A stretch of DNA of 14,402 nt from a bacterium (GTDB taxonomy: Bacteria > Babelota > Babeliae > Babelales > RVW-14), in NCBI GenBank assembly GCA_043822925.1, contig JBDRBF010000073.1, forward strand, positions 1-14,402. Direction: 5' to 3'. Positions 2 through 14,402 of the stretch are shown one piece after another; within the stretch, counting starts at the first letter, position 1; each line of letters begins with the position of its first letter. A program made the translations under genes and the position numbers. The notes under the pieces were generated by a model. That model was not told the origin of the DNA, made no database searches, and saw only the letters and a list, made by a program, of their open reading frames with translations.

Positions 2-586
2 AATGTAAAAGACGTAATAACAAAACTCCTTGAGAATACACATTTTATAAATAACGCAACCGAAAAACAAATTGCTGATCTTGATGAAAGCTCATCTAAA
101 TTAGAATTAAAAGACGAGTTTATTAAAATATTCCCGCAGAATTTCAGCACGCTTACAAACAATCTTATCAGCGGCATGGCAAAGCCAGAAACACCAGGAC
201 AAATCAAATATCTTGAAAGTAAAAACGTAAAGCTCGTAGTTACACTGACCAAAGACAAACTTGATGCAACGCTTTTCAAAAACACGTCAGTTAAAAACAT
301 ACACTTGCCAATTCAATCAGGTAATGCACCAACAGAAGACCAAATAAAAACATTCTTAACAGAAGCCAAACAAGTTACAAGCACGGGCGGTAAAATAGTC
401 GTGCACTGTGAACAAGGCCTACACAGAACCGGCACCATGTTGGCTCTCTGGCTAATCACAAACAACAACATGTCAGCCCAGCAGGCTATAAACTTTGTAC
501 GCGAACAGCGTCCAGGCTCAATCAGTCCAGGAATCCAGGAAAAATTTTTACACAAATTTGAAGAACAAATAGCAGAGTATAAATAA
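2..586 (+). CDS. Dual-specificity/protein-tyrosine phosphatase family protein (DUSP23-like CX5R domain), 5'-truncated by the window edge
   Basis: The frame of ORF 176..586 stays open back to base 2 (NVKDVITKLLEN...KIFPQNFSTLTNNLISGMAKP), so ATG176 is internal. PQNFS..ISGMAKP resembles the N-terminal strand of DUSP23-type domains. The P-loop VVHCEQGLHRTG is present (Cys codon 407-409, Arg codon 425-427), as is the C-terminal AINFVREQRPGSI..Q motif. Stop TAA at 584-586. Confidence 0.9.
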   Translation, partial: NVKDVITKLLENTHFINNATEKQIADLDESSSKLELKDEFIKIFPQNFSTLTNNLISGMAKPETPGQIKYLESKNVKLVVTLTKDKLDATLFKNTSVKNIHLPIQSGNAPTEDQIKTFLTEAKQVTSTGGKIVVHCEQGLHRTGTMLALWLITNNNMSAQQAINFVREQRPGSISPGIQEKFLHKFEEQIAEYK

Positions 587-623: not shown

Positions 624-656
624 GGGTAGGCGTAAAAACCTGCCCCTCTGTTTTTT
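624..656 (+). terminator. Probable intrinsic terminator between convergent genes
   Basis: GGGTAGG (624-630) pairs with CCTGCCC (639-645) with one G:U pair and an 8-nt loop, followed by CTCTGTTTTTT. It lies in the 77-bp gap between the two stop codons. Confidence 0.65.
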
Positions 657-663
657 ACAAAGC

Positions 664-3600
664 TCACCAACCACTACTTTCATCAACGTTTGGTTTTATA
701 ACCACTTCTTCGCATACAACGTCTATACCATGAGCCAGCTGAGCAACCTGCCCGGCAAGCGCCACTTTGCCTTCACGCGTGAGCTCCTCGCTTTTTTCAA
801 GCAGTAGCATCTTTATATCTTTTGCCATTTGCGTCTGAAATCCAGGCTCCTCTGGCAAAAGATAGGCGTTTCCAGAATCAGGCCATCCCCAATCGTTTGC
901 CTCATTTTGCGCCCCAACATAAACACCGGTAGCCTTGCTCAACGCCTTTGCCAGATCAGCCGCAAAGGAATACACTCGCAAATCTTCTTTATGCGAATCT
1001 ATCGCGAACTTAGCAGCTGCAAACGCCCTAACATACGCAATCTTTTTATTAATTAAATCGAACACAATCTCTTTTGCCAAATCAAACTTTTTATGTTTTA
1101 TCAACTCTGATGCAAACTCAGAGAATATTTGATTAAAATCTTTTTTCGCATTAAACAAAGCTCGTTTTTTAACGTTTTCTTCATTTTGAGCAAATTTTTC
1201 TCCAAGAACTGGTTTGGCCTGGGCAACAAACGCATCCACATCTACAGCTCCCTGGGCCTGAACAGCCGCCTCATCTAGTTTTCCCAGAACCTCTTTAATC
1301 TTAGCTTCAGGATATTCGCGTACAATTATCGGAACAAAATCATTCAAAAACACGGGCAATTGCGCAAGAAATTTTTTCGGCAAAAGTTCATCCATAAATA
1401 CTTTAATTTCTCCCTCAGAAAATAGTTTTTTAGCGAGCGGCACAAAAACATCAAAAAAACCTGGATTTGCCGATACCAACAATGCCCAATCATGCATAAA
1501 TTCTGATAATTTACTTTTAACAAACGCTTGATAATCTCCATCTTTTTTAGCCAAAACATCAAGCCCCTTCATCACCAGGTCCGGCATAGCCCTGACAAGC
1601 TGTTTATTTTTAAATAATTCTTCTACCAGAACAAACGCTGCTGAACGCGATTCTTCAATCTCTAATAACAAACATAGTTTTGATAACAAATAACGTGATA
1701 AAAAAAGCGTGTCAGTCCCAATCTTCTTAGTTACCTCAAGGTCTTCATGCTTCATACCACTTTCGATATTTAATGGATAATTAAATTGAGCATCTTTTAA
1801 GAGACTTAATTTAATGCCATTAAGAGCCTCTTTATACTTAGTTGCTCCTATAAAAGCATCTACAAAAAAGGCGCTACAAAAAAGATCATTCAAGAAAAAC
1901 TGGTCCGGAACGGCCAATTTTTCAAATAAAGTAAAAACTTGATCGGCGCCAACCCACTTGTAATCATGGTCACGATATAGACCTAGGCCTTTCCCCCATT
2001 TTTTACCACTCATTTTATTAACAGTATCAAGCATCTTAATAGAGCGGACAAAAGCCCCCATTGTCATCTGTGCAAACGCTCTAAGATATTTCACCAAAAT
2101 ATCAAGATCACTTTTTTCGTCCAAAATCCACGAAAAAGTCGTAACCAAACCAGCTTGCCTGCCCTGAGCAACACCCGTAACTGCCGGTGGTTTTGCAAAC
2201 ACAAAGCCCGATGCAAGCGCCGCAAGATTCGCATACCCACCAAGCGCATACATTCTGTTATACTCGTTGTGCCCCATAAACACGGGTGACAAGACGGCCT
2301 GATGCTCTTTATTCGTATTATATAAAAGACTAAACGTTACACTATGTTGGCGCAGCACCAAATTGTAATTCAAGCGCATATACGGATAATTATAATCAAC
2401 CCCGACAAGCGTTGCATACGTCATTCGCCCCTCATGCTCATCATACGAACTCACTTCGCGCAATTTCGCAGATACTTTTTGAATAAAATCTGGCAACCCG
2501 GCCTCAGAAATACCAATCTGCTTATGTAACGTAGAAATAATAACTAAAATATTTTGGTGCATTAACGTAAACAAATCTTCAAGCGACACAGGCAAAGCAC
2601 GGGCAAAATCAACCTTGCTCCCAAGCGCAGCAGCCGCAACTGAAAATGTTGACGTCGCATTTAAATAAGATTCTTTTGGCTCCTGATAGCGTTTCATAAA
2701 AATTTCGCGTATTTTTTTGAGATATTGTTCAAACGGCCAATTCCAATCTTGGCGATTCAGCTCAACCAGCATCAGCTTCTTTTCCATTACTTTCTGGTCA
2801 TCATCGATCGCCGCAACCCACTGCTCCATAAGCATCAAGTACCCAACAAGTACCTGCGCAAAGCGTACAACCTGGTCCTGTTTCTTGTCTTTATACGCAG
2901 GACTACCAGTCAGGCCCTTAATTGATTTATCATACACGTCGACTATTTTTTTCAAAAAGCCCAAAAGAACCAACTTGCCCAGCTCGCCCGTATTTTTGAA
3001 TCTTGTTATAAGCGGTGCATATTTAGTTAAAACAAACGCTTTTAAATCTTTATAATCTAATGGCGGCACCTTTTTGCCTTGCCAATTCTGCCAAAACGCC
3101 TCGTTTGAAGCCACGAAAATAAACAAAAATTGTTTTGAAAACTCAGTATACAATTTCGTAAATTTCGCAGGATCACCCCATTGCTCAATCCTGTTTTGCC
3201 AGGTCTCAAGAATATGTCCATTTTCTTGAACCCACGAGATAACTTCTTTATTAGCATAATATTCTTCTACCAAATCAAAAGCACAAGCGTGAGACCGAAT
3301 TGATATCTCTTTATCTTTATTTTTTTCCCACGCTTTAATAAAAGACGAATTAATCCAGACTCCAAGAACACCAAATTCTTGCAAACGGGCAACAACCAAC
3401 GCAAGATGCTTAATCGCTTGAGACACGTTTCTGAAATTTTGCTCAAACTTCTGTCCCGGCAATCTTGTTTCAGATAAACCGTTTAAAAACGTTTGCCAAT
3501 TTTTTTTAATATCTTCACGCAATATGAGTTTATCGGCCTTCATGAGGTCACGGACATACTCCCGGGACTCAGCCCCAAATTTTCCCGTTATTTTTTCCCC

Positions 3601-5937
3601 GGCAATCTCGTCATCTTTTTGCTCTTTTAAGAGATCACCAAGCGAAAATCCTGAAACCATGTCTAACGTTGCCTGTTGATAAATTATCGCTTCTAAAAAC
3701 TTGATCGCATATAAGCGTAATAAACGTGCCTGCCCCGTGCTCATGTTCTTAGTTTCTTCAAATATGTGCAAAATTTCTACGGCGCTACACACAACCCCCA
3801 AATACACAAGAGCCGCTTGCCCCAATACATCTTTAGGCTGCAAAAGAGATGCTGCGCGATAAACTATGCACTTGAGCGCGCCAAGAACATCTTCTTTTTT
3901 TTCCCCCGCTTTAATACGTCTCAACAAAGCCCCAACCGAAACTTTTTTGTCATCTTGATCTTTCTTTTTATCCCAGGCAAGCTCGACAAAATTTGCTTCA
4001 AAAGTGTCTTTATTGCGTGTCTTAAATAATTCTAAAAAATCTGGAATAAGTGATATTTTGCGTGGTATTGGATGGGTGTACCAGCCTTCATAAATAAATT
4101 CTTTTCTTTTCACGCTATCTTTAAGTAATTCTTTATCCTGCGCACGTGCTTTGACGGCCAGTGCGCGCTGCATATCACATAACACGCACGCCTGCCCCTC
4201 ACTCAGCCACGCTTTTATTGTGTCACACTGGTCGCCAGAAAAGACAAGCACCGGAATACCATAACTACGGAACGTCGTTGCTTCATGTGATGTTGACGGA
4301 GCCATCTCTTTGACAATTACGGCTTTAATCTCACGTCTATTTGTTTCAGGGGCATCATGAATTCTGAGCGCCTGCGGCAACGTATCGGTCATAATAATCT
4401 GGCCTATTGTTTCTACCAGACGTACATACCCACCAGCTATACCAATACTTTCACCGCTCACAACATGCGCTGCTTGGTCAGGCAGGCCGTTAAGATACAT
4501 GTCTGTAATATAGTCTTGTATGCGTTCTTGTTTACGCTGCACAACGGGCCGCGCTTGGACAAAATAAATCTTATTTTCACGCTTATTAACCACAAATTCT
4601 ATGTCTTGTGGATAGTCATAAAATGTTTCTACTTCGTCGGCAATTAATTTAAGATCAAGCACCAAATCTGGCCCAATCGCAGGTTTTTCCCGAGTTTCTT
4701 TCTTATTATCAACAAATTCAAGCGCATATTTTTTTTGAGGCGCGTACTTAACACCAGGCTCAAATTTTTCCTGATTTTCTTTTGAAACCAAACGCTTTGT
4801 TTTCTTGCGAACTATGGGATGTATCAAACCTATCTTGCCTGAACCAGCGTGCGCCCAAATATAATACGTATCGACGGGCACAAGACTATTAACAACAGCC
4901 TCGTTATGTCCGTATGTTGCCTGTATTTGGGTTACGCCAGGCGTATTGCCCTCCGCTTCCCGGGTAAACATAACCCCAGAAACCGGGATATCTTTTTCTT
5001 CTGGTTGCGTGCCATCCCATATACGTTCGCCAATCATGCATTGAATAAGAACCGGCATAAATGGTTCTTTTTGCAGCTCTGTTTTTATCGCATCTATTAT
5101 TTCGTTTTCTTGTTTCTTCTCGTTTTGAGCAGCCGAGCGTGTAGAAAGAAGCCTTTGGGAAAAAGATTTCTCCCCAAAATATGACGCTACTACTTCACCG
5201 ATGGCACGCCATATTTCAACAAGTTCTGGACGCACTGCAGCTATTGTTTCATTGCCACCGGCATTGGCCAGCTCTTTTGTATCTTCTCTGCCCGTACTTC
5301 TAACCATTAATAACGCGCCTGTTTGTTTGATATCAAGAGAGGCTAAAAAAGCACCTAACTGCTCGACTAAATCTTGGGAGTCTTGGCCCAAATTTTCTTC
5401 TATTTTTTTTTCGCTGTGCACGTTAAAAGCATCTCTAATACTTATTTGTATCTCTTTAAGAACAAGCAGCGCATCAGGGGCCAAACCAGGTTCTTTTTTT
5501 TGTTTTATTTGTTCATCAATAAATGTAATTTGTTTTTTAACAAATTCTTGCCATTTTTCATCCAAACTCACGCCTATTTTTGAACCAATAGTACGCTCAA
5601 AATTTACTGCTATATATTTTTTAATTTTCGTATCACTTATAGCAAAAAATTCTGGCACGGCTAACTCAAAACCAGTTTTAGATGCTTTTGCTAATTTTTT
5701 ATTAACATCTTTTGCCAGCGTATGCAAAACAGACAAATGAGTTGTCTTGTTTCCATACTGCTTTGAAAAATCGTCAAAGCTCCCTTTTTTTTCCGTAACA
5801 AGATCCCCCTGCTCAAACGTTGGTAAAACAAAATTACCTAACTCTTTGTAAAAATCTCCCCCATACCCATTTGGCCCCAAGAGCATAAATACGAGACCTA
5901 AAAACAGAAAAATGCCCAAACGACGCGATATGCGCAT
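664..5937 (-). CDS. Large exported PEP-synthase/PPDK-family dikinase-like protein (ATP-grasp PEP/pyruvate-binding domain, phospho-His swivel domain, long unrecognised C-terminus)
   Basis: 1757-aa ORF with RBS GGAG (5947-5944). Signal-peptide-like N-terminus MRISRRLGIFLFLGLVFMLLGPNGYG. PPDK_N motifs: YGNK, VPEFFAI, LMVRSTGRED..ANAGGNET (~aa 210-230), PVLIQCMI, SGVMFT, ATYGHNEAVV, PQDIEFVV, IYFVQARP (~aa 461). Swivel motif STSHEATTFRSYGIPVLV with His551 (codon 4287-4285). Confidence 0.85.
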   Translation of the reverse strand: MRISRRLGIFLFLGLVFMLLGPNGYGGDFYKELGNFVLPTFEQGDLVTEKKGSFDDFSKQYGNKTTHLSVLHTLAKDVNKKLAKASKTGFELAVPEFFAISDTKIKKYIAVNFERTIGSKIGVSLDEKWQEFVKKQITFIDEQIKQKKEPGLAPDALLVLKEIQISIRDAFNVHSEKKIEENLGQDSQDLVEQLGAFLASLDIKQTGALLMVRSTGREDTKELANAGGNETIAAVRPELVEIWRAIGEVVASYFGEKSFSQRLLSTRSAAQNEKKQENEIIDAIKTELQKEPFMPVLIQCMIGERIWDGTQPEEKDIPVSGVMFTREAEGNTPGVTQIQATYGHNEAVVNSLVPVDTYYIWAHAGSGKIGLIHPIVRKKTKRLVSKENQEKFEPGVKYAPQKKYALEFVDNKKETREKPAIGPDLVLDLKLIADEVETFYDYPQDIEFVVNKRENKIYFVQARPVVQRKQERIQDYITDMYLNGLPDQAAHVVSGESIGIAGGYVRLVETIGQIIMTDTLPQALRIHDAPETNRREIKAVIVKEMAPSTSHEATTFRSYGIPVLVFSGDQCDTIKAWLSEGQACVLCDMQRALAVKARAQDKELLKDSVKRKEFIYEGWYTHPIPRKISLIPDFLELFKTRNKDTFEANFVELAWDKKKDQDDKKVSVGALLRRIKAGEKKEDVLGALKCIVYRAASLLQPKDVLGQAALVYLGVVCSAVEILHIFEETKNMSTGQARLLRLYAIKFLEAIIYQQATLDMVSGFSLGDLLKEQKDDEIAGEKITGKFGAESREYVRDLMKADKLILREDIKKNWQTFLNGLSETRLPGQKFEQNFRNVSQAIKHLALVVARLQEFGVLGVWINSSFIKAWEKNKDKEISIRSHACAFDLVEEYYANKEVISWVQENGHILETWQNRIEQWGDPAKFTKLYTEFSKQFLFIFVASNEAFWQNWQGKKVPPLDYKDLKAFVLTKYAPLITRFKNTGELGKLVLLGFLKKIVDVYDKSIKGLTGSPAYKDKKQDQVVRFAQVLVGYLMLMEQWVAAIDDDQKVMEKKLMLVELNRQDWNWPFEQYLKKIREIFMKRYQEPKESYLNATSTFSVAAAALGSKVDFARALPVSLEDLFTLMHQNILVIISTLHKQIGISEAGLPDFIQKVSAKLREVSSYDEHEGRMTYATLVGVDYNYPYMRLNYNLVLRQHSVTFSLLYNTNKEHQAVLSPVFMGHNEYNRMYALGGYANLAALASGFVFAKPPAVTGVAQGRQAGLVTTFSWILDEKSDLDILVKYLRAFAQMTMGAFVRSIKMLDTVNKMSGKKWGKGLGLYRDHDYKWVGADQVFTLFEKLAVPDQFFLNDLFCSAFFVDAFIGATKYKEALNGIKLSLLKDAQFNYPLNIESGMKHEDLEVTKKIGTDTLFLSRYLLSKLCLLLEIEESRSAAFVLVEELFKNKQLVRAMPDLVMKGLDVLAKKDGDYQAFVKSKLSEFMHDWALLVSANPGFFDVFVPLAKKLFSEGEIKVFMDELLPKKFLAQLPVFLNDFVPIIVREYPEAKIKEVLGKLDEAAVQAQGAVDVDAFVAQAKPVLGEKFAQNEENVKKRALFNAKKDFNQIFSEFASELIKHKKFDLAKEIVFDLINKKIAYVRAFAAAKFAIDSHKEDLRVYSFAADLAKALSKATGVYVGAQNEANDWGWPDSGNAYLLPEEPGFQTQMAKDIKMLLLEKSEELTREGKVALAGQVAQLAHGIDVVCEEVVIKPNVDESSGW

Positions 5938-5974: not shown

Positions 5975-7234
5975 CTACAAAATAGAACACTGAGATGATT
6001 GCTTCATGCTCCGTGCAAAAAGCTCAAGCGCTTTAAAATAATTCTTCTCCATTTTTTTATCTTTTTGCTTTCGTACATGTCTAAAAATTTTAATCCCACT
6101 GGCCGGGTTATGAAAAACGTTTGGCGCCAAGTAAATTCTCACCTGCAAACGATCTAAAGCACACGCCAAAGAATAATAATTACACGGGGCATACAAAAAC
6201 GCCTTTTCTCTGTCTTTTTTATACAAATTTAAAAATTCAGCTACCGTTATTTCACTCTCTTTGTCATATAATTTATACGGGCATTCATGTCTCTTTTCAC
6301 AAAAAACATCATCACACGCAGTACAATCAGCATGAAGTCTTATTTTTTTTACCAATAAACTTTTACCACCACACCCACCGGGGTCAGCATTCCACACATA
6401 CTTATTAGTTTTGCTCACTGGAATAAAAACTTGAATCATCCAATTATCATCATAACTGAGATATTTTTTAATTGGATTACGAGAATCAGACCCTTCTATC
6501 ATTTTCAAAAGCTTTACCCCATGCGTAGGGAAATAATCACCCAAGCCAAAAAAATCAAATACTTCTTTTAAAACGCTACTCGTACTTAAACTCCCCATTA
6601 AACGTTGCGCCCCGCCACCTATATTTGGAACAAGAAAATAATTCATAGGACATTCAGATGGACAACTACAAGCACACGTAAACGGTGTTGGCCCGGCTGA
6701 AAGACATAATTTACGTGAAATGGCTCCTCCATCAAAATGTTTCCCCGCACTTATAAGCTCATCAACATTGGCATAATCCTTAAACTCTTTGTATGGAATC
6801 CGCAGTATGGCCAAGTCTTCCGGCAGATCAATCTCAAAAAAAACTTTCAAAAAAACACGCATAACATCTTGAATAAAAATATAAAATGCATGCGTACCAT
6901 GATAAAAAACATGATGCGTTTTTCCATAAAAATTTTCTAATTTTGCAAAACGTTTTACAACATCTTCAAAAAATTTATCTTGAGGCAACTTCACATCAAA
7001 TTTATGGTCATATTTTTTTTCAGCATAATAATCAGTTACTTTTCGAAAAAAAGCATCAAGAAACGCATGCGTCTCTTTTCCATTTCTTAAATAAGCCCCT
7101 GTTTGCGTATATGGCTCAAAATAGTCTGTCATTTCAGATGCATCGTTAAAAGCAAAACAAGTACAAAAATTAAAAACGATCACGCCCAATAAAGACCAGA
7201 ATATTTTCTTTAAAAATAAAATATTATTTACCAT
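5975..7234 (-). CDS. Exported Cys-rich hypothetical protein with FYHGT motif (possible ADP-ribosyltransferase-like fold)
   Basis: 419-aa ORF with a G-rich RBS (GGCGGGGG on the minus strand, ~7249-7242) and a hydrophobic N-terminus KKIFWSLLGVIVFNFCTCFA. VFYHGT at ~aa 109-114. Contains 15 Cys, including CACSCPSEC and CTACDDVFCEKRHEC. It ends 37 bp before the dikinase start, so the two are likely co-transcribed. The CDS is well supported; the function is speculative. Confidence 0.75.
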   Translation of the reverse strand: MVNNILFLKKIFWSLLGVIVFNFCTCFAFNDASEMTDYFEPYTQTGAYLRNGKETHAFLDAFFRKVTDYYAEKKYDHKFDVKLPQDKFFEDVVKRFAKLENFYGKTHHVFYHGTHAFYIFIQDVMRVFLKVFFEIDLPEDLAILRIPYKEFKDYANVDELISAGKHFDGGAISRKLCLSAGPTPFTCACSCPSECPMNYFLVPNIGGGAQRLMGSLSTSSVLKEVFDFFGLGDYFPTHGVKLLKMIEGSDSRNPIKKYLSYDDNWMIQVFIPVSKTNKYVWNADPGGCGGKSLLVKKIRLHADCTACDDVFCEKRHECPYKLYDKESEITVAEFLNLYKKDREKAFLYAPCNYYSLACALDRLQVRIYLAPNVFHNPASGIKIFRHVRKQKDKKMEKNYFKALELFARSMKQSSQCSIL

Positions 7235-7760: not shown

Positions 7761-8975
7761 ATGAAGATCAAAATACTCTTCGTGTACCTATCAGTACTTG
7801 CAAGTCTTACACTTGCAAGTACCATCACATATTATAAATTCTTCAAAAAAGCACCCCCAAAGCTTTTTACAACAACTATGCCCAAGCTCAAAGCAATCTC
7901 TCAAAACGTTTCAGCTTCCGGCATATTAAGTATTAAAAATCCAATCAAAATAGGTAGTTTGGTCTCAGGCACCGTAAAAGAACTATATGTAACTGAAAAC
8001 CAATTTGTCAAAAAAGGTGACGTACTAGCTATAATAGATCCCGGTACCAGCGACACAGAATTCCAAAAAGCCTTTTATGAACATGAAAAAACACGCAAAG
8101 AATTTGAATACACAAAAAACAATTTTGAACGTAAGAAAAAATTATATCAAGCAAACCAACTATCTAAAGATGAGTATGAACGGCTCAGTAAAGAGCTAGA
8201 TATTACTGAGTTAAATCTTAAAAAAGCAAAGATTAACTTAGAAAAAGAACAACTATACCTTAACAATAGAAAAATAGTTGCAATCCAAGACGGTTTTATA
8301 ACAGCCGTTAATACCACAAAAGGCGCCGGAGTTTCAGGTGTAGAGGTATCCAACAGTTGCTCAGAACTCTTTATTATTGCTCCTAATATTACCCAAATGG
8401 AAGCAAAACTCGATATTGATGCCAGCGATATTGGGTTAATTAAACCAGATCTTCCAGTAAGTTTTACCGTCAGCACATACCCAGACAAAGTTTCTTACAC
8501 CAAAATACGCGATATTGGCTTTTCACCTAAAATATCAAACGATTCAGCTTTCTATAAAGCAAGCGTCGACATAGACAACGAAACACAATTGTTTAGACCA
8601 GGCATGACAATACATGCAAAAATTAAAGTCGCTAAATCAAAAAGTACATTATGTATTAACGGCATAGCGTTCCAAATTAATGGCAAAATGTTAGAAAAAA
8701 TCGCCAAGCAATTAGAATACAACTACCAACCAATAAAAAAAAGATCAAAAAAAGAATATAGAAATTCCCGTGCAAACCAACGGGTTAAAACCGTCTGGAT
8801 AGAACAAGACAAAAACTTTATCGAAAAACAAGTAATCTTAGGCATTACTGATAATAATTATTTTGATTTTGAAATACTTGAAGGACTAACAGCTAACGAC
8901 AAAATTATTATTGATATTGTCGAAGACGACGTCATGCAGAATATATATAAGAAATGGTTCAAGGGCCCACTATAA
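7761..8975 (+). CDS. MacA-like membrane-fusion/periplasmic adaptor subunit (copy 1)
   Basis: N-terminal TM anchor; lipoyl half-motif IGSLVSGTVKELYVTENQFVKKGDVLAIID; coiled-coil hairpin; IVAIQDGFI; VSFTVSTYPD; FRPGMT; VILGITD...EILEGL. Confidence 0.92.
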   Translation: MKIKILFVYLSVLASLTLASTITYYKFFKKAPPKLFTTTMPKLKAISQNVSASGILSIKNPIKIGSLVSGTVKELYVTENQFVKKGDVLAIIDPGTSDTEFQKAFYEHEKTRKEFEYTKNNFERKKKLYQANQLSKDEYERLSKELDITELNLKKAKINLEKEQLYLNNRKIVAIQDGFITAVNTTKGAGVSGVEVSNSCSELFIIAPNITQMEAKLDIDASDIGLIKPDLPVSFTVSTYPDKVSYTKIRDIGFSPKISNDSAFYKASVDIDNETQLFRPGMTIHAKIKVAKSKSTLCINGIAFQINGKMLEKIAKQLEYNYQPIKKRSKKEYRNSRANQRVKTVWIEQDKNFIEKQVILGITDNNYFDFEILEGLTANDKIIIDIVEDDVMQNIYKKWFKGPL

Positions 8976-8987
8976 GAAAGAGCCCCG

Positions 8988-10217
8988 ATGAACACCAGAA
9001 TACTTATTCGTAACTCTCTACGTAACTTGAGCCACCATAAAGTTCGTTCTTTTTTAACAATTTTGGGAATAATAGTAGGAATAGCATCTGTTATCGCAAC
9101 GCTGGCAATCGGCTACGGGACCGAACAAAAATTACGCCAAAAAATAATGTCCATGGGATGTAATTATATAGAACTCTGGGCCGGCAATTCTTTTGCTGAA
9201 GGCGCATCAGCCGTCACTAAACGCACAAATTCTTCACGATTATCGCTCGATGACGTAAAACTTTTCAAAACACTTTTTCCCGCGATTAAGCACATTACGC
9301 CGTTTTTTCATAGTCGCACAAACACTGAATTTCAAACAAACTCAATTAAAGGCCAAGTTAAAGCAGGCAACCAAAATTTTTTTTCTGTTATCGGCAGATC
9401 AATAAAACACGGTCACTTCTTTAATTATTATCAGGTGCAAAAAGGCGCCCGCGTGGTCGTACTCGGGCACAAAGCAGCAAAAGAACTTTTCAGATCACTC
9501 GACCCTATCGGCCAAATCGTTATGATAAAAAAAATCCCATTCACCGTAATTGGAATAGCAAAAAAAATTGAAAATTTTTTTGGAATACATGACCCTAATC
9601 TTGAAATTTTCGTGCCGTTCACGACGTTTAATAGATATATATCCCCAGATGCAAGCAAATTTGTACACGGCATCATCATATCTTCTTACTCGACAGAATC
9701 TATGCCTCAAGTCGTCAAACAAATAAGAAAAAACTTGCGCATGCGCCATAACCTAAAATTACGCGAACCGGACGACTTCACGATTATCGACCAAGAATCA
9801 ATGCTCAAAGCAGCAAAAGACTCTTCTTCTGTCTTTAATTTGTTTTTATTTATCGTCGCATCTATATCACTTATTGTTGGCGGCATAGGCGTCATGAACA
9901 TCATGCTCGTCTCAGTATCTGAACGCTCACAAGAAATCGGCATCCGTATGGCTCTTGGCGCCTGTGAACGTCTTATTTTACGCCAATTTCTAATCGAATC
10001 AGTAACATTATGCTTTGTCGGTGGCATTATTGGGATTATTTTGGGAATAATCGCCCCTCTACTGGCCAATTACTTTGCCGGATTTCCGGTTGTCATTAAC
10101 ATACAAACTATTTTCGCTGCATTTGTGACGATCTTCCTAGTTGGGCTCTCGTTTGGCTTCTACCCAGCTTATAAAGCATCTCGGCTTAACCCGGTTGAAG
10201 CGATCAACAGCCATTAA
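8988..10217 (+). CDS. MacB/FtsX-family ABC transporter permease (copy 1)
   Basis: RSFLTILGIIVGIASVIA TM1, a large periplasmic domain, the signature SISLIVGGIGVMNIMLVSVSERSQEIGIRMALGA, and C-terminal FGFYPAYKASRLNPVEAI. Confidence 0.95.
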   Translation: MNTRILIRNSLRNLSHHKVRSFLTILGIIVGIASVIATLAIGYGTEQKLRQKIMSMGCNYIELWAGNSFAEGASAVTKRTNSSRLSLDDVKLFKTLFPAIKHITPFFHSRTNTEFQTNSIKGQVKAGNQNFFSVIGRSIKHGHFFNYYQVQKGARVVVLGHKAAKELFRSLDPIGQIVMIKKIPFTVIGIAKKIENFFGIHDPNLEIFVPFTTFNRYISPDASKFVHGIIISSYSTESMPQVVKQIRKNLRMRHNLKLREPDDFTIIDQESMLKAAKDSSSVFNLFLFIVASISLIVGGIGVMNIMLVSVSERSQEIGIRMALGACERLILRQFLIESVTLCFVGGIIGIILGIIAPLLANYFAGFPVVINIQTIFAAFVTIFLVGLSFGFYPAYKASRLNPVEAINSH

Positions 10218-10240
10218 ACCACGTTAAGACGCGTGAAAAT

Positions 10241-10270
10241 TTGCAAATCTCAAAAAAAAAGTGCTAAACT
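10241..10270 (+). promoter_or_regulatory. Internal sigma70 promoter for the second exporter module
   Basis: TTGCAA (10241-10246), an 18-nt spacer containing A9 (10252-10260), then extended -10 TGcTAAACT (10262-10270). RBS AGGGA at 10308-10312 before ATG10323. Confidence 0.6.
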
Positions 10271-10322
10271 TGGACAAGAGCGTTAAATCCTACACATTCT
10301 TGCAATTAGGGAAACAAAAACA

Positions 10323-11519
10323 ATGATAATAAGCAAAAAAATTCTTTTGGCCACTATTTTTCTCGGCGCAGTAGCCGGCATATTCTTAATCATGAAATCA
10401 AAAAAAAACAAAACCGTACAACCAGTATATTCAACTGAAAAACCAACACGACGAAATCTCGTTCAAAAAATAACTGCCTCAGGAACACTTAAAGCAGAAG
10501 AGCAAATTTCAGTCGGCAGCTTAATGGACGGAAAAATAGACAAGATTCTAGTCGAAGATAATGACACGGTAAAAAAAGACCAAGTACTCGCAATTATTGA
10601 TAACGGAATCGGCGACACAAGCATAAAAAAATTAAAAGCTACGCTCAAGAATATGCGTGCTCAACTTGAGTATCAAAAGAAATTTTATGAACGCCAGAAG
10701 TTTTTATTCGAATCTGGACAAATAGCTCAAGATACATACGATCGCTATACACGTGACTACATATCAGCCCAAGCAACGGTAGAACAAACACAAGCTGATC
10801 TAGAGCAAGAAGAAAAAAATTATAATAATTTGTTTATCAAAGCCCCCGTAGATGGCATTGTTATTGCAAAAAATATAGACTTGGGTCAAATGATCGCCGC
10901 TAAATTCCAAGCCACAACGCTCTTTCACCTGGCTAAAGACCTAAAAAAAATGGAAGCCAGACTCGATGTTGACGAAGCAGATGTAGGCATGGCAAAAGAT
11001 AATCAACCAGCAAGTTTTACCGTAGATGCATTCCCAAACAGAAAATTCAAATCAAAAATAAAAAGAATTCAGTACATGTCCAAAACAGCCGAAGGCGTCA
11101 TATCATACGCAACTTTTTTGGACATAGAAAATAAAGACATGTCACTCAGACCAGGCATGACGGTTAACGTTGAAATCAAAGTTTCAAAAAGCAAAAATGC
11201 GTTAAACGTTCCTAATAAAGCATTTCGTATAAACGGGCTCAAGCTAGAAGATTATGCAAACTCAGTCAGCATCCCGTTTGAAAAATTGCCAGAAAAAAAA
11301 CCAGGCGAAATTCGTCCTCACCATAAAATCTTTGTTCTTGATGGCAAAACAATCAAAGAGACAGCCGTCTCGCTTGGCACAAATAACGGCCAATATACTG
11401 AAATCTTAGAAGGCATCACCGAACAATCAAACGTGATAACAGAATTTCTTGAACCCAAAGGCGAAAATTTACTCTTAAAAGGTATGATGGGCGGCATGGG
11501 CGGCGGAGTTGGAAAATAA
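10323..11519 (+). CDS. MacA-like membrane-fusion/periplasmic adaptor subunit (copy 2)
   Basis: TM anchor; ITASGTL; VGSLMDGKIDKILVEDNDTVKKDQVLAIID; IKAPVDGIVI; VDEADVG; FTVDAFP; LRPGMTVNVEI; VPNKA. The stop overlaps the next start (TAATG at 11517-11521). Confidence 0.93.
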   Translation: MIISKKILLATIFLGAVAGIFLIMKSKKNKTVQPVYSTEKPTRRNLVQKITASGTLKAEEQISVGSLMDGKIDKILVEDNDTVKKDQVLAIIDNGIGDTSIKKLKATLKNMRAQLEYQKKFYERQKFLFESGQIAQDTYDRYTRDYISAQATVEQTQADLEQEEKNYNNLFIKAPVDGIVIAKNIDLGQMIAAKFQATTLFHLAKDLKKMEARLDVDEADVGMAKDNQPASFTVDAFPNRKFKSKIKRIQYMSKTAEGVISYATFLDIENKDMSLRPGMTVNVEIKVSKSKNALNVPNKAFRINGLKLEDYANSVSIPFEKLPEKKPGEIRPHHKIFVLDGKTIKETAVSLGTNNGQYTEILEGITEQSNVITEFLEPKGENLLLKGMMGGMGGGVGK

Positions 11520-12205
11520 TGAAAACACTAGTAGCTAAAAATCTTATCAAGACGTACAAAATGGGCGAAACAACCGTTAACGCCCTGCGTGGTATAAATC
11601 TTGAAATTGAAAAGGGCGAATTTGTTGCCATCACCGGAACATCTGGATCAGGTAAATCAACGTTCATGCACCTTCTTGGGTGCCTGGACGTGCCAACAGA
11701 AGGTGAGTACTTTATCGATGGCACTAATGTTGCACACGCAACACGAGATGAACTGGCTGGCATTAGAAACAAAAAAATTGGTTTTGTATTTCAAAAGTTT
11801 CACCTATTGCCAGACTTAACCATTCTTGACAACGTCGCACTACCAATGCTTTATGCTGGGCACTCAGAAGCAACCGCACGCAAACGAGCCGCTGAATTAT
11901 TAACGATGGTCGAACTGGGTAACCGTATGGACCACTATCCATACCAAATTTCCGGTGGCCAACAACAACGTGTCGCGATCGCCCGGTCACTTATTAATGA
12001 CCCAAGTATTTTACTTGCAGACGAACCAACCGGTAACTTAGACTCGGCAACAGGGCTGGTAATTCTTGCACTATTTAAGAAGCTTAATGAAGAAAACGGC
12101 GTAACTATTATTTTAGTTACACATGAACCATCAGTTGCAGCTAAAGCAAAACGAATCGTTGAACTTGTTGATGGTTCTATTAAATCAGACAGAAAGACCT
12201 CATGA
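11519..12205 (+). CDS. ABC transporter ATP-binding protein (MacB/LolD-type NBD)
   Basis: Walker A GTSGSGKST, Q-loop GFVFQKFHLL, signature ISGGQQQRVAIAR, Walker B/D-loop LLADEPTGNLD, H-loop VTHE. ATGA overlap with the next gene. Confidence 0.97.
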   Translation: MKTLVAKNLIKTYKMGETTVNALRGINLEIEKGEFVAITGTSGSGKSTFMHLLGCLDVPTEGEYFIDGTNVAHATRDELAGIRNKKIGFVFQKFHLLPDLTILDNVALPMLYAGHSEATARKRAAELLTMVELGNRMDHYPYQISGGQQQRVAIARSLINDPSILLADEPTGNLDSATGLVILALFKKLNEENGVTIILVTHEPSVAAKAKRIVELVDGSIKSDRKTS

Positions 12206-13422
12206 ATTTATACATGCTTATGGCCAGCGCAATGCGCTCGCTCAGAAACCACAAAGTTCGTTCATTACTGACAACGCTAGGTATTATTATCGGTATCGTA
12301 GCTATTATTTGCGTTATGTCGATCGGCGAAGGCGCCAAACAAAGAGTAAATAAAGAAATCGAAAAATTAGGTACAAATTTTATTATCGTTCTTTCTGCGT
12401 CTCAAAAACGCATGGCTTCACGCGGTCACCCTGGCGAAGCAATTTTTACGCCACAAGATCTCGCTACTATCCGAACAGAAGCAACCGACGTTGATATGGT
12501 ATCACCCGGTAACATTGCACCATTAAAAATTACTGCCGAAAATAAATCATGGGACACCAATATTGGCGGTGTCGAGGAAAACTACCTTGATATCCGTCAA
12601 TGGAAACTAATAATGGGCACTTTTCTCACCAACCAAGATGTAAAAGCACAAAGCAAAGTCGCAGTACTTGGCATCACCGTAGCCAACGAACTATTTGGAA
12701 AAGACAAAAATCCAATCGGACAAACAATTCGCATCAAAAAGATCCCATTTAAAATTATCGGTGTACTTGAAGAAAAAGGCAAATCGCCTGACGGCAGAGA
12801 TCAAGATGACACAGTCTTTATCCCTATAACAACACTCGCTCACCGCCTACAAGGAAAAAAACTAAAATACTTTGCACTTATTTGCCAGGCAAAAAGCAAA
12901 GAACGCATACGTAATGCTGAAGAACAAATTCGCTCAATTATTCGCCAAAAACATAATGTAAACGACAAACAAGAAGATAATTTTACCATTTTTACCCAGG
13001 ATGATATTTCTCAAGCAAGCGATGCTGCAACAAAGATTTTAAACATACTCTTAATGGTCGTCGCTTCTATATCGCTTCTTGTCGGTGGCATAGGAATCAT
13101 GAATATCATGCTTGTTACCGTTACTGAACGAACACGAGAGATTGGCATACGCATGGCACTGGGCGCAACCACAAGCAATATTTTGACGCAATTTCTTTTG
13201 GAATCGATAACCATCTGCCTGGCCGGAGGCTCACTGGGAGCTCTTGCTGGGGTGGCTATGTCAAAATTTGTTGGAATCGCTCTAGGCTGGTCGATTTTTA
13301 TATCAAAAACATCTGTAATTGTTTCACTATTCTCATCTATGTTAATTGGCCTATTTTTTGGCTTTTATCCTGCACACAAAGCATCAATGCTCAACCCCGT
13401 TGACGCACTGGCCGATAAATAG
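12202..13422 (+). CDS. MacB/FtsX-family ABC transporter permease (copy 2)
   Basis: RSLLTTLGIIIGIVAII; DQDDTVFIP; ASISLLVGGIGIMNIMLVTVTERTREIGIRMALGA; FFGFYPAHKASMLNPVDAL. Confidence 0.95.
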   Translation: MNLYMLMASAMRSLRNHKVRSLLTTLGIIIGIVAIICVMSIGEGAKQRVNKEIEKLGTNFIIVLSASQKRMASRGHPGEAIFTPQDLATIRTEATDVDMVSPGNIAPLKITAENKSWDTNIGGVEENYLDIRQWKLIMGTFLTNQDVKAQSKVAVLGITVANELFGKDKNPIGQTIRIKKIPFKIIGVLEEKGKSPDGRDQDDTVFIPITTLAHRLQGKKLKYFALICQAKSKERIRNAEEQIRSIIRQKHNVNDKQEDNFTIFTQDDISQASDAATKILNILLMVVASISLLVGGIGIMNIMLVTVTERTREIGIRMALGATTSNILTQFLLESITICLAGGSLGALAGVAMSKFVGIALGWSIFISKTSVIVSLFSSMLIGLFFGFYPAHKASMLNPVDALADK

Positions 13423-13860: not shown

Positions 13861-14402
13861 ATGAAAACGTCTCACATGCTTTTTACAAGCTTACTTTTTA
13901 TTATACTCACACTCACGCTAGCAAGTATGCTCATACTATCCAGCTGCTCGACGCAACAAAATAACAGTAACGAATTAGTAGTCGGCACCTGCGCAGGCTT
14001 CCCTCCATACGAGATACTGGCCAATAATGGTGATATTATTGGCTTTGATATAGACGTCATGCAAAAAATAGCTGAGAAGCTTAACAAACAACTAATAATT
14101 AAAGACATGGCTTTTGACGCGCTGCTGGTCGCCCTCAAGCAAAATAAAATCGACGCGATTATTGCCGGCATCTCGATCACGCAATCAAGACTGGCTGAAA
14201 TATCAATGGTACACTATCACGGCAAACCAATAAAAACGCTCCCCATTTTGTTTTGGAAAGAAATTCCAGCAGGCGTAAAGACAATTGCAGACCTGGCAAC
14301 ACAGCCAAACAAAACCGTATGCGCGCAAGTGGGGACAATACAAGAAGAGATACTCTCTAAATATACCTACTTAGATATCAAGAACCTGGAAAACATCCCA
14401 GA
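13861..14402 (+). CDS. Polar amino-acid ABC transporter substrate-binding lipoprotein (SBP family 3, ArtJ-like), 3'-truncated
   Basis: Manual translation: MKTSHMLFTSLLFIILTLTLASMLILSSCSTQQNNSNELVVGTCAGFPPYEILANNGDIIGFDIDVMQKIAEKLNKQLIIKDMAFDALLVALKQNKIDAIIAGISITQSRLAEISMVHYHG...VCAQVGTIQE... Lipobox LSSC (Cys29) and motifs FPPYE, GFDID, FDALL, IDAIIAGISIT. The frame is open to the window end. Confidence 0.9.
   Translation, partial: MKTSHMLFTSLLFIILTLTLASMLILSSCSTQQNNSNELVVGTCAGFPPYEILANNGDIIGFDIDVMQKIAEKLNKQLIIKDMAFDALLVALKQNKIDAIIAGISITQSRLAEISMVHYHGKPIKTLPILFWKEIPAGVKTIADLATQPNKTVCAQVGTIQEEILSKYTYLDIKNLENIP

Follow-up and report, generated by a model that had tools for sequence, protein, structure and literature searches.

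A dikinase-like protein with a signal-like N-terminus from an uncultured member of the Dependentiae suggests an uncharacterised kind of host-directed phosphate transfer

Rifampin phosphotransferase (RPH) and the PigC/RedH enzymes couple an ATP-grasp domain with phosphohistidine chemistry to modify a non-pyruvate acceptor, and do so without a TIM barrel. The acceptors are small molecules for RPH and PigC, as well as for phenylphosphate synthase and the flavonoid/acetovanillone kinases, whereas glucan dikinases place their mark on a macromolecule, from which it is removed by dual-specificity glucan phosphatases (SEX4, LSF2, laforin). To our knowledge, the glucan dikinases are the only characterised non-pyruvate ATP-grasp/His enzymes which do not act on small molecules, and all characterised enzymes with an ATP-grasp domain and a phosphohistidine swivel either serve metabolism or resistance in the cytoplasm or are starch dikinases of plastids. 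PTS Enzyme I has a swivelling His domain belonging to this family, has no ATP-grasp domain and is charged by PEP via a TIM barrel; there, the phosphate is passed to HPr docked on a helical subdomain. In Legionella, a modifying enzyme and its reverser may be encoded side by side, as are SidM/SidD and AnkX/Lem3. We know of no effector pair with a dikinase-type writer.

The protein considered here is encoded by an uncultured member of the Dependentiae (TM6), for which the host type is protists, within a window (the whole stretch of DNA analysed, 14,402 nucleotides) whose features are collected in Table 1. The giant gene named in the original prediction exists as a single ORF of 1757 residues, read from the sequence; it lies on the minus strand, which that prediction had left unstated, and its open frame of 1762 residues extends only five codons upstream of the ATG at 5937. 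RNA-library contigs from two studies fall on the gene (3872-4344; 2765-2980; 3 and 5 of 30 bins), which does not by itself show transcription. The order of domains by Pfam and NCBIfam, in which a nucleotide-binding domain (NBD) is followed by a His domain and then by a new module, differs, as had been anticipated, from those of PEP synthase (PEPS)/PPDK, RPH/PigC and glucan water dikinase (GWD). Given its relatives in several unrelated intracellular bacterial groups, the protein may represent a type of host-directed phosphate-transfer enzyme that has yet to be characterised.

Table 1. Features of the dikinase-like gene and its surroundings, in window coordinates.
Feature	Position	Strand	Basis or remark
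Whole dikinase-like gene	664..5937	-	1757 aa + stop; stop codon 664-666
Signal-peptide-like N-terminus, aa 1-26	5860..5937	-	Sequence reading and hydrophobicity heuristic
ATP-grasp nucleotide-binding domain, aa ~60-473	4519..5760	-	Pfam PPDK_N, column counts, PEP synthase alignment
Swivelling His domain, aa ~480-590	4168..4500	-	PEP synthase alignment; His551 conservation
Putative catalytic His551 codon	4285-4287	-	Within motif PSTSHEA
Central all-helical region, aa 600-954	3076..4140	-	Family-conserved, without Pfam match; AF2 model
Conserved C-domain, aa 955-1300	2038..3075	-	Alignment, AF2 model; candidate acceptor/catalytic site
Variable C-terminal tail, aa 1301-1757	667..2037	-	Low occupancy/conservation, without Pfam match
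Dual-specificity (Cys-based) phosphatase, convergent neighbour, 5' end cut by contig end	2..586	+	Pfam, motif
Terminator-like hairpin between phosphatase gene and dikinase-like gene	624..645	+	Consensus scan only
Upstream ORF, 419 aa	5975..7234	-	Hydrophobic N-terminus, Cys-rich, without Pfam family

The predicted ATP-grasp domain was recovered by Pfam as PPDK_N (PF01326; residues 88-473, E 1.5e-31; 110 bits, where the cut-off is 27). The Pfam match to the PEP-utilizers mobile domain, at residues 536-571, is sub-threshold (E 0.26). Residues 319-576 align by phmmer to the solved PEP synthases 8a8e (E 6e-12) and 2ols (1.6e-11), and the alignment runs through the DIE, QxRP and TSH motifs, placing TSHEA over the TSHAA/TCHAA of these enzymes, His on His; His551, with the Thr two positions before it, had been singled out in just this role. 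Residues 212-596 are 26% identical to the PEP synthase of the same genome (E 2e-21). In a fast MAFFT alignment of 45 homologues, the source of the conservation counts given here, H551 and S550 are each present in 45/45, and T549, equivalent to the Thr used for regulation in PPDK, in 35/45. Within the ATP-grasp domain, G62, K64, R213, S214, E218, D219, N225, G227, G228, N229, D445, E447, Q461, R463 and P464 are family-invariant, and Q299 is found in 44/45 homologues; R213, E218, D219, D445, E447, Q461 and R463 are each retained in 45/45. Judged by its sequence, the N-terminal 600 residues constitute a complete ATP-grasp domain and a phosphohistidine carrier domain, with all family-conserved catalytic positions intact.

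Beyond residue 600, neither Pfam nor NCBIfam returned a match. The C-terminal PEP-utiliser part, whose motifs the original prediction had found missing, is indeed absent: Pfam detected no PEP-utilizers_C domain in the protein, and the control, the PEP synthase of the same genome, matched PF02896 at 1.2e-63. The modelling proposed as a check agrees. An AF2 model of residues 590-1300 (m5561fb30c295, central region; pLDDT 81.4, pTM 0.77) consists of helical bundles and then a small sheet/helix domain, and one of residues 955-1300 (m3acd8a08bb18, C-domain; pLDDT 81.5, pTM 0.82) of a helical bundle and an eight-strand sheet with helices; neither shows a TIM barrel. Fold searches with the C-domain model, Foldseek included, gave no convincing match, and newness of the fold is not claimed. 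The central helical region (residues 600-954) produced generic four-helix-bundle matches only, the ESM Atlas held no usable match for residues 600-1290 or 1300-1757, and a PDB-wide structure search with the C-domain model surfaced no RPH/PigC-type chain, a result which does not amount to an exclusion. We show that the second site of the dikinase-like protein is a family-specific module (residues 600-1300) and not a pyruvate/PEP TIM barrel.

Three motifs had been put forward as candidate acceptor sites in this module. FTLMHQN (residues 1123-1129; F in 43/45 homologues, H and Q in 45/45) and LRQHS (H1198 in 45/45, S1199 in 43/45) are conserved throughout the family, while MGHNEYNR is only partly conserved, with G1222 in 40/45, R1228 in 37/45 and a variable His (13/45). 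The invariant polar residues of the C-domain in the family alignment are D1003, K1007, E1120, H1127, Q1128 and H1198. A predicted complex of the His domain (residues 478-586) with residues 590-1300 scored 0.08 and 0.13, where the mark is 0.32, which weighs on neither side. At the position of the variable tail, residues 1301-1757, paralogues have HEAT, ankyrin, LRR or dual-specificity phosphatase (DSP) modules.

A profile search with the C-domain returned 957 representative clusters (50% identity), 651 of them at E<=1e-30. Among the 150 matches listed, the C-domain lies mostly at about residue 800-1300 of proteins 1100-2600 aa in length; PPDK_N is present in 12 of the 16 long C-domain proteins scanned, and in natural split forms the dikinase half and the C-domain half are adjacent genes. 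The C-domain is thus conserved as a unit in association with the dikinase module, which it nearly always follows, and defines a large unnamed family. Our literature search found no description of this family, and a 'giant genes' preprint mentions PPDK_N once, in a mere domain tally. The distribution of homologues, which the original prediction had wished to see mapped, takes in genomes of Dependentiae, Legionellales, Chlamydiae and Rickettsiales type. Of 261 Dependentiae genomes, at least 44 carry the family, often in two or more copies, and it is present in 11 of the 198 Legionellaceae genomes scored; the isolate Legionella dresdenensis is among the carriers, and further loci occur in genomes labelled Legionellaceae, Coxiellaceae, Parachlamydiaceae and Rickettsiales. 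Taxon labels of metagenome-assembled genomes are unreliable, several contigs labelled Pseudomonadota being Dependentiae by genome assignment. Among the loci returned, the family is restricted to intracellular bacterial lineages. The family tree, built with FastTree, has a long outgroup branch and therefore does not tell us which way any transfer went.

The convergent neighbour matches PTP-SAK (1.4e-22) and DSPc (8e-19) in Pfam, and the CX5R / HCx5R(S/T) loop is intact in its active-site motif, HCEQGLHRT. Among the best 60 of 86 PDB matches to this phosphatase, the closest solved proteins are DUSP23 (7.6e-16) and CDC14, and glucan phosphatases (laforin, SEX4) do not occur, which lends a glucan-specific reading of the phosphatase no support. 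It is the sole strong DSP match in its genome, and nine of ten strong PF22784 matches (E<=1e-21), spread over four genomes and four arrangements, lie within ~6 kb of a family gene. DSP domains are also fused to family members, N-terminally in P0067 and C-terminally in P0035 and P0136. This linkage is a subclade trait (3/20 loci in one survey, 3/79 in another): the linked or fused genes belong to one Dependentiae subclade, the window included, and no DSP stands beside the closest orthologue (G159). The window phosphatase most resembles protein phosphatases, but the DSP class also covers glycan, lipid and nucleotide phosphatases, and the resemblance therefore does not fix the acceptor. On the other side of the dikinase-like gene, the 419-aa ORF lies 37 nt upstream and may be co-transcribed with it; no homologue of this ORF was found near 20 other family loci.

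With somewhat better than even confidence, we read the dikinase-like protein as an exported, host-directed phosphotransferase which passes phosphate from ATP via phosphohistidine to a non-pyruvate acceptor, and which is paired with a phosphatase. By analogy with PEP synthase/PPDK, ATP would be bound in the grasp domain and its beta-phosphate transferred to His551, with release of AMP and Pi, whereupon the His domain would swing over to the second site. There, the module of residues 600-1300 would hold the acceptor and catalyse transfer of the phosphate onto it. Comparative genomics points to an exit from the bacterium by the Sec signal and then a secretin-type outer-membrane route, and to the protist host cell, where ATP is available, as the probable site of action. 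The adjacent phosphatase would erase this mark or regulate it. As acceptor we lean towards a hydroxyl on a host macromolecule, with protein considered first and glycan or phosphoinositide possible, because DSP fusions or neighbours are found in some relatives and HEAT, ankyrin or LRR tails in many.

The same chemistry could instead serve a small-molecule acceptor, such as a host metabolite or defence compound, phosphorylated so as to inactivate or trap it. This would follow the precedent of the characterised non-pyruvate relatives, glucan dikinases aside, and would agree with weak NCBIfam matches of the N-terminal domain to PigC, RedH and RPH (24.9-38.5 bits against cut-offs of 999-1350; RPH 24.9 against 999, PigC 38.5 against 1300). 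The C-terminal sheet/helix part likewise bears a weak, non-significant likeness to the ligand-binding helix-grip proteins PYR1/PYL and kirola (Foldseek prob 0.1-0.3). We nevertheless consider a small-molecule acceptor unlikely. The domain order is unlike that of RPH/PigC, where the His domain stands last; a module of ~700 residues is large for such a site; and repeat tails accompanied by linked or fused Cys-based phosphatases are more typical of effectors directed at macromolecules.

The signal peptide of the original prediction corresponds to a signal-peptide-like N-terminus. This sequence, MRISRRLGIFLFLGLVFMLLGPNGYGG, has three Arg, 14 residues of hydrophobic core, and G23 and G25 as small residues; it contains no Cys and therefore no lipobox, and scores 3.07 by a hydrophobicity heuristic. 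All such calls follow our own hydrophobicity rule, not SignalP; by this rule, similar N-termini occur in 24/26 Dependentiae members, 0/16 Legionellales/Gamma and 1/11 Chlamydiae, and on each half of two split Dependentiae forms (L124, L131). The window's genome (G000) encodes three secretins and three T2SSE ATPases, and VirB4, FHIPEP and DotI had no match in this assembly, which is 92% complete. DotI/IcmL was found in 5/5 Legionellales-type genomes carrying the family and FHIPEP in 5/5 chlamydial ones. Export signals therefore look lineage-appropriate, being Sec-type in the Dependentiae and absent, bar 1/11 chlamydial copies, from those of lineages with a T4SS or T3SS. As a discriminator the Sec signal is weak, because such signals are very common in the Dependentiae, occurring on 44% of CDS in one cultured member (PMC6561590).

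A Sec signal alone leads only to the periplasm, and the protein might thus be an envelope enzyme which uses inward-diffusing host ATP to phosphorylate an envelope component or imported nutrient, without being a host-targeted effector. The neighbouring genes include two MacAB/HlyD sets, which are envelope exporters, and the Dependentiae are described as energy parasites inside host cells (PMC6561590), both in keeping with such an enzyme. Against it, the near absence of signal-like N-termini from the legionellal and chlamydial copies is compatible with delivery by a T4SS/T3SS or with residence in the cytoplasm, but not in the periplasm, paralogues have eukaryote-type repeat tails, and all loci returned for the family come from intracellular lineages; we regard a periplasmic role as improbable. 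The secreted effector of the original prediction gains independent comparative support from the unrelated intracellular lineages, the lineage-appropriate export signals, the ankyrin/HEAT/LRR tails and the linked or fused phosphatases. As far as computation could address them, none of the refuting conditions set out in that prediction was borne out. A patchy spread over unrelated host-associated lineages and the presence of eukaryote-type interaction modules are both what an effector class would be expected to display.

It is also conceivable, though we give it little credence, that the phosphate is not handed on at all, and that autophosphorylation, or the conversion of ATP to AMP, acts as driver or switch for some unrelated activity or binding function of the C-terminal module; in DSP-linked forms, the net effect could then be plain ATP consumption. 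Fold searches recognised no acceptor-type fold, T549 is retained in most homologues, and a phosphatase linked to the gene would offer a means of resetting the switch. However, the invariant C-domain residues (two His, Lys, Asp, Glu, Gln) suit phosphate binding and acid-base chemistry, and in different phyla the two halves have stayed associated whether fused or split, as expected of two half-reactions of one enzyme. That we are dealing with a cytoplasmic, if divergent, PEP synthase or PPDK, its hydrophobic N-terminus an annotation artefact, is very improbable: public databases call relatives 'PEP/pyruvate-binding domain-containing protein' or 'phosphoenolpyruvate synthase' and the best NCBIfam matches are PEP synthase models, but these reach 86.6 bits against an equivalog cut-off of 598 (NF005057) and 80.1 against 739.75 (TIGR01418), PEP-utilizers_C and TIM barrel are both absent, a complete canonical PEP synthase with all three Pfam domains is encoded elsewhere in the genome (contig C9), and a stop within five codons upstream of the ATG at 5937 places the hydrophobic N-terminus in any long reading of the frame. 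Apart from these two names the family appears in the databases only as 'hypothetical', and the naming is wrong for the pyruvate-binding part.

If the protein is indeed an exported phosphotransferase with a host acceptor, it would represent new chemistry for host manipulation, drawn from a family of 957 clusters with a new conserved acceptor domain, and would offer the first functional handle on the effectors of an almost unstudied phylum, the Dependentiae. The linked or fused phosphatases provide a ready-made experimental control in the search for the acceptor. More speculatively, and with the balance of our judgement against so broad a claim, the family may constitute a new class of host-modifying writers, which by a phosphohistidine route from ATP to AMP and Pi mark hydroxyls of host proteins (or other macromolecules) using a catalytic fold not seen before, with secreted DSPs as erasers, the toolkit being exchanged horizontally among Dependentiae, Legionellales, Chlamydiae and Rickettsiales in protists.

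With PEP synthase (PpsA)/PPDK the dikinase-like protein shares an ATP-grasp PPDK_N domain followed directly by a swivelling His domain, as well as the motifs VRS(S/T)..ED, GVMFT, DIE, QxRP and T(S/C)H(A/E)A; where those enzymes have a TIM barrel (PEP-utilizers_C), it has ~1150 unrelated residues, and it bears a putative export signal. RPH/PigC have the grasp domain first, the substrate domain second and the His domain at the C-terminus, whereas here the His domain stands immediately after the grasp domain, with the new module beyond it. PTS Enzyme I offers a parallel in its use of a swivelling His domain as phosphate carrier, and neither Pfam nor the fold search matched our protein to EIN. GWD and phosphoglucan water dikinase differ in having carbohydrate-binding modules, of which Pfam detected no family (CBM) in our protein at E<=1, and in placing the His domain before the NBD rather than after it; their writer/eraser logic, on the other hand, is mirrored by the dikinase-DSP linkage of the family. 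The same logic is seen in the writer/eraser effector pairs of Legionella, and while the dikinase-DSP pairing is drawn from gene linkage and fusion only, it resembles those pairs both in its adjacent encoding and in its patchy spread among amoeba-associated bacteria.

The dikinase-like protein (the query), predicted to be exported, pairs an N module, consisting of an ATP-grasp domain and a swivelling His domain, with a C-domain (aa 955-1300) that defines its family of homologues. The original prediction of one ORF with a signal-like N-terminus, ATP-grasp and His domains and no PEP-utiliser C-terminus was upheld. Read directly, the N-terminus MRISRRLGIFLFLGLVFMLLGPNGYGG is laid out in n/h/c regions like a Sec signal, with no lipobox Cys. 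Of the Pfam families, PPDK_N matched aa 88-473 (E 1.5e-31), while the mobile (His) domain stayed below threshold; by phmmer, however, aa 319-576 aligned with PEP synthases of known structure, catalytic His on catalytic His. From aa 600 onward neither Pfam nor NCBIfam gave a match. The gene lies on a contig (C73, 14.4 kb, all of it the window) of a 1.52-Mb assembly of 86 contigs, 92% complete, and its nearest relatives are Candidatus Babeliales / candidate division TM6 proteins (n=45; top match 47% identity, full length).

Features of the window and of loci holding family members (L) or a chlamydial genome (G269)
Feature	Position	Strand	Remarks
Cys-based dual-specificity phosphatase (DSP)	2..586		convergent to dikinase-like gene; Pfam PTP-SAK 1.4e-22
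Dikinase-like gene	664..5937	(-)	one ORF, 1757 aa
Cys-rich ORF	5975-7234	(-)	419 aa; hydrophobic N-terminus; no Pfam family; 37 nt upstream of dikinase-like gene
RNA-library contig	6102-6291		190 nt, on the 419-aa ORF
Two tandem MacAB-type export sets	7761-13422	(+)	
Solute-binding protein gene start (SBP_bac_3)	13861-14400	(+)	lipoprotein-like N-terminus; cut at contig end
Split forms	L124 7473-11155; L131 7554-11227		two Dependentiae genomes, one complete
Tandem family paralogues	L104 7509-17431; L106 1770-13372		one gammaproteobacterial MAG
FHIPEP (SctV-type) gene	G269:C4:813453-815414		matched piecewise
Leucine-heptad segments	L041 5516-, 10058-, 17498-; L050 7566-, 14326-; L047 5878-, 7472-		directly after signal peptide

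In a 45-sequence alignment of family homologues, the conserved core spanned roughly aa 60-1250, with the final 450 residues variable. Within the ATP-grasp domain, G62 and K64 were conserved in 44/45 sequences, and R213, S214, E218, D219, N225, G227-G228-N229, D445, E447, Q461, R463 and P464 in all 45. S550 and H551 were likewise invariant; the Thr at -2, which had been noted together with His551, is not universal (35/45). At the sequence level the ATP-grasp domain and phospho-His carrier are intact in the query. C-terminal to the His domain, D1003, K1007, E1120, H1127, Q1128 and H1198 are family-specific invariant polar residues, followed by the near-invariant N1192 (44/45) and S1199 (43/45) and, lower, R1228 (37/45). 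Because they hold such invariant or near-invariant residues, FTLMHQN and LRQHS, two of the candidate acceptor-site motifs proposed earlier, are real family signatures, but the third, MGHNEYNR, is conserved only in part. Confident AlphaFold2 models from family alignments, of aa 590-1300 (pLDDT 81.4, pTM 0.77) and aa 955-1300 (pLDDT 81.5, pTM 0.82), both comprise helical bundles and then an eight-strand sheet with two or three packed helices; neither contains a beta/alpha barrel. Since the models are non-barrel and contig C9 of the genome encodes a separate, ordinary PEP synthase complete with its three Pfam domains, the refuting case of a PEP/pyruvate TIM barrel at the query's C-terminus does not hold, and the models favour the predicted replacement of the barrel by another candidate acceptor region.

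A C-domain profile built from 20 sequences cut out of genomic loci (alignment A2) retrieved 957 representatives at 50% clustering, 651 with E<=1e-30. In the best 150 of the 957 the domain mostly occupied roughly residues 800-1300, and the proteins were 1100-2600 aa long. A scan of the 16 longest of these 150 and of 16 short ones (32 in all) found PPDK_N in 12 of the long proteins and in none of the short ones, which look like fragments or split forms; several genomes encode the N module and C-domain as adjoining genes. Other tails in family proteins include HEAT/ARM, ankyrin and LRR repeats. Of 261 genomes of the phylum, at least 44 hold a true member (best E<1e-30, counted from the table), among them 20 of the 34 further genomes from the window's own bacterial family; many Dependentiae genomes have two or more copies, one (G144) as a tandem pair. 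Weaker matches (E 1e-10 to 1e-16), which cover query aa 315-577 in frames some 800 aa long, were rejected as ordinary PEP synthases.

With a single genome taken for each species, a locus scan confirmed 123 relatives, and 79 of these loci were kept. Beyond TM6/Babeliales they include Legionellaceae (including the isolate Legionella dresdenensis CCUG 59858), Tatlockia, Coxiellaceae, Parachlamydiaceae, other Chlamydiae and one Rickettsiales chromosome. MAG labels are imperfect, several 'Pseudomonadota' contigs being Dependentiae by genome handle; the main groups are nonetheless backed by genome content, with DotI/IcmL in 5/5 Legionellales-type and FHIPEP in 5/5 chlamydial genomes. Occurrence in Legionellaceae is patchy (11/198 scored genomes, three more unscored). 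By HMM scans, the N module and C-domain travel together across all these lineages. The family shares a non-barrel module, conserved and co-inherited with the N module, that carries the invariant polar cluster. FastTree placed the query in a Dependentiae-only clade with loci L053 and L054, and united two Alphaproteobacteria sequences with those of Legionellales type in a well-supported clade (99); given the long outgroup branch, we claim no direction of transfer. The three or more tandem paralogues of the gammaproteobacterial MAG (1814-2527 aa) share a distinct stretch of about 150 aa that extends their N-termini, and these paralogues lack a signal-like segment. The piecewise FHIPEP gene of G269 has 5 and 2 in-frame TGA codons; possible explanations are a pseudogene, an assembly error or a sense reading of TGA.

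Putative export signals match lineage. Scoring as signal-like any ORF in which an 11-residue stretch, begun within its first 45 residues, averaged >=2.0 on the Kyte-Doolittle scale, and leaving out 5'-open ORFs and incomplete N modules, we counted 13/15 Dependentiae-labelled members, 11/11 Dependentiae by genome handle, 0/16 Legionellales/Gammaproteobacteria, 1/11 Chlamydiae, 1/3 Alphaproteobacteria, 5/5 oddly labelled and 5/8 unlabelled; of the two misses among Dependentiae-labelled members, at least L053 results from a start codon wrongly set in ORF calling. By the same rule 30/45 database homologues scored, and a conserved signal-like N-terminus in Dependentiae members is borne out. In the two split Dependentiae forms L124 and L131, each half has its own signal-like segment, which argues for a functional signal and for an encounter of the two halves beyond the cytoplasm. 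Three secretins and three T2SSE-type ATPases are encoded in the window's genome; VirB4, FHIPEP and DotI had no match in this 92%-complete assembly. In the cultured Dependentiae Chromulinavorax, 44% of CDS and 78% of ankyrin proteins are reported to have signal peptides (PMC6561590); going by these figures, Sec signals are the normal label of presumed Dependentiae effectors, too common for a signal alone to be more than weak evidence of effector status. Several different secreted proteins of three genomes (G132, G144, G151), namely family paralogues, DSP proteins and other large neighbours, have in common a similar leucine-heptad segment (type ...L..LQGKLGQLKGK...), which may be a post-Sec sorting or oligomerisation module.

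Phosphatases are both linked and fused to the family. The window's DSP, closest among solved proteins to DUSP23 and CDC14, retains an intact active-site loop (HCEQGLHRT), is separated from the dikinase-like gene by a terminator-like hairpin, and is the sole strong match of its family in the genome. Across this genome (G000), G132, G151 and G144, there are 10 strong matches (E<=1e-21), 9 of them no more than about 6 kb away from a family gene. Four layouts occur: convergent, upstream and co-oriented, downstream, and divergent. Fusions occur at the N-terminus of one homologue (P0067), at the C-terminus of two (P0035, P0136) and in one ORF of locus L126. The link is limited to a subclade (3/20 and 3/79 sampled loci), and no DSP gene adjoins the query's closest orthologue.

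The 37-nt gap suggests that the 419-aa ORF and the dikinase-like gene may be co-transcribed; no homologue of that ORF occurred near 20 other family loci. The MacAB-type sets comprise an HlyD-like adaptor and MacB/FtsX permease, then an adaptor, ABC ATPase and MacB/FtsX permease. In another genome (G140, L044) the family gene has the same adaptor-permease pair beside it, a sign that synteny may be conserved in this bacterial family. In other studies, groundwater metagenomes yielded near-identical DNA contigs, and short RNA-library contigs from two studies match the dikinase-like gene, which is no proof of transcription.

Mechanistically, ATP would yield phospho-His551, AMP and Pi; the His domain would swing over to the C-domain and hand the phosphate to an acceptor held by the 700-residue module, presumably in the host cell, and the phosphatase would remove or regulate the mark. 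We lean towards a macromolecular acceptor, protein first; a small-molecule acceptor, a periplasmic role and a self-regulatory switch are possible alternatives. The observations behind the original prediction are confirmed, and its reading as a secreted effector is supported within the limits of sequence analysis. The literature searched, with most subscription journals and bioRxiv supplements outside its scope, holds no description of the family, whose members are publicly named 'PEP/pyruvate-binding domain-containing protein', 'phosphoenolpyruvate synthase' or 'hypothetical protein'. The query, which is 26% identical to the genome's own PEP synthase over aa 212-596 (BLASTP, E 2e-21), is probably a dikinase engine joined to a new acceptor module, with an extracytoplasmic, host-directed role.
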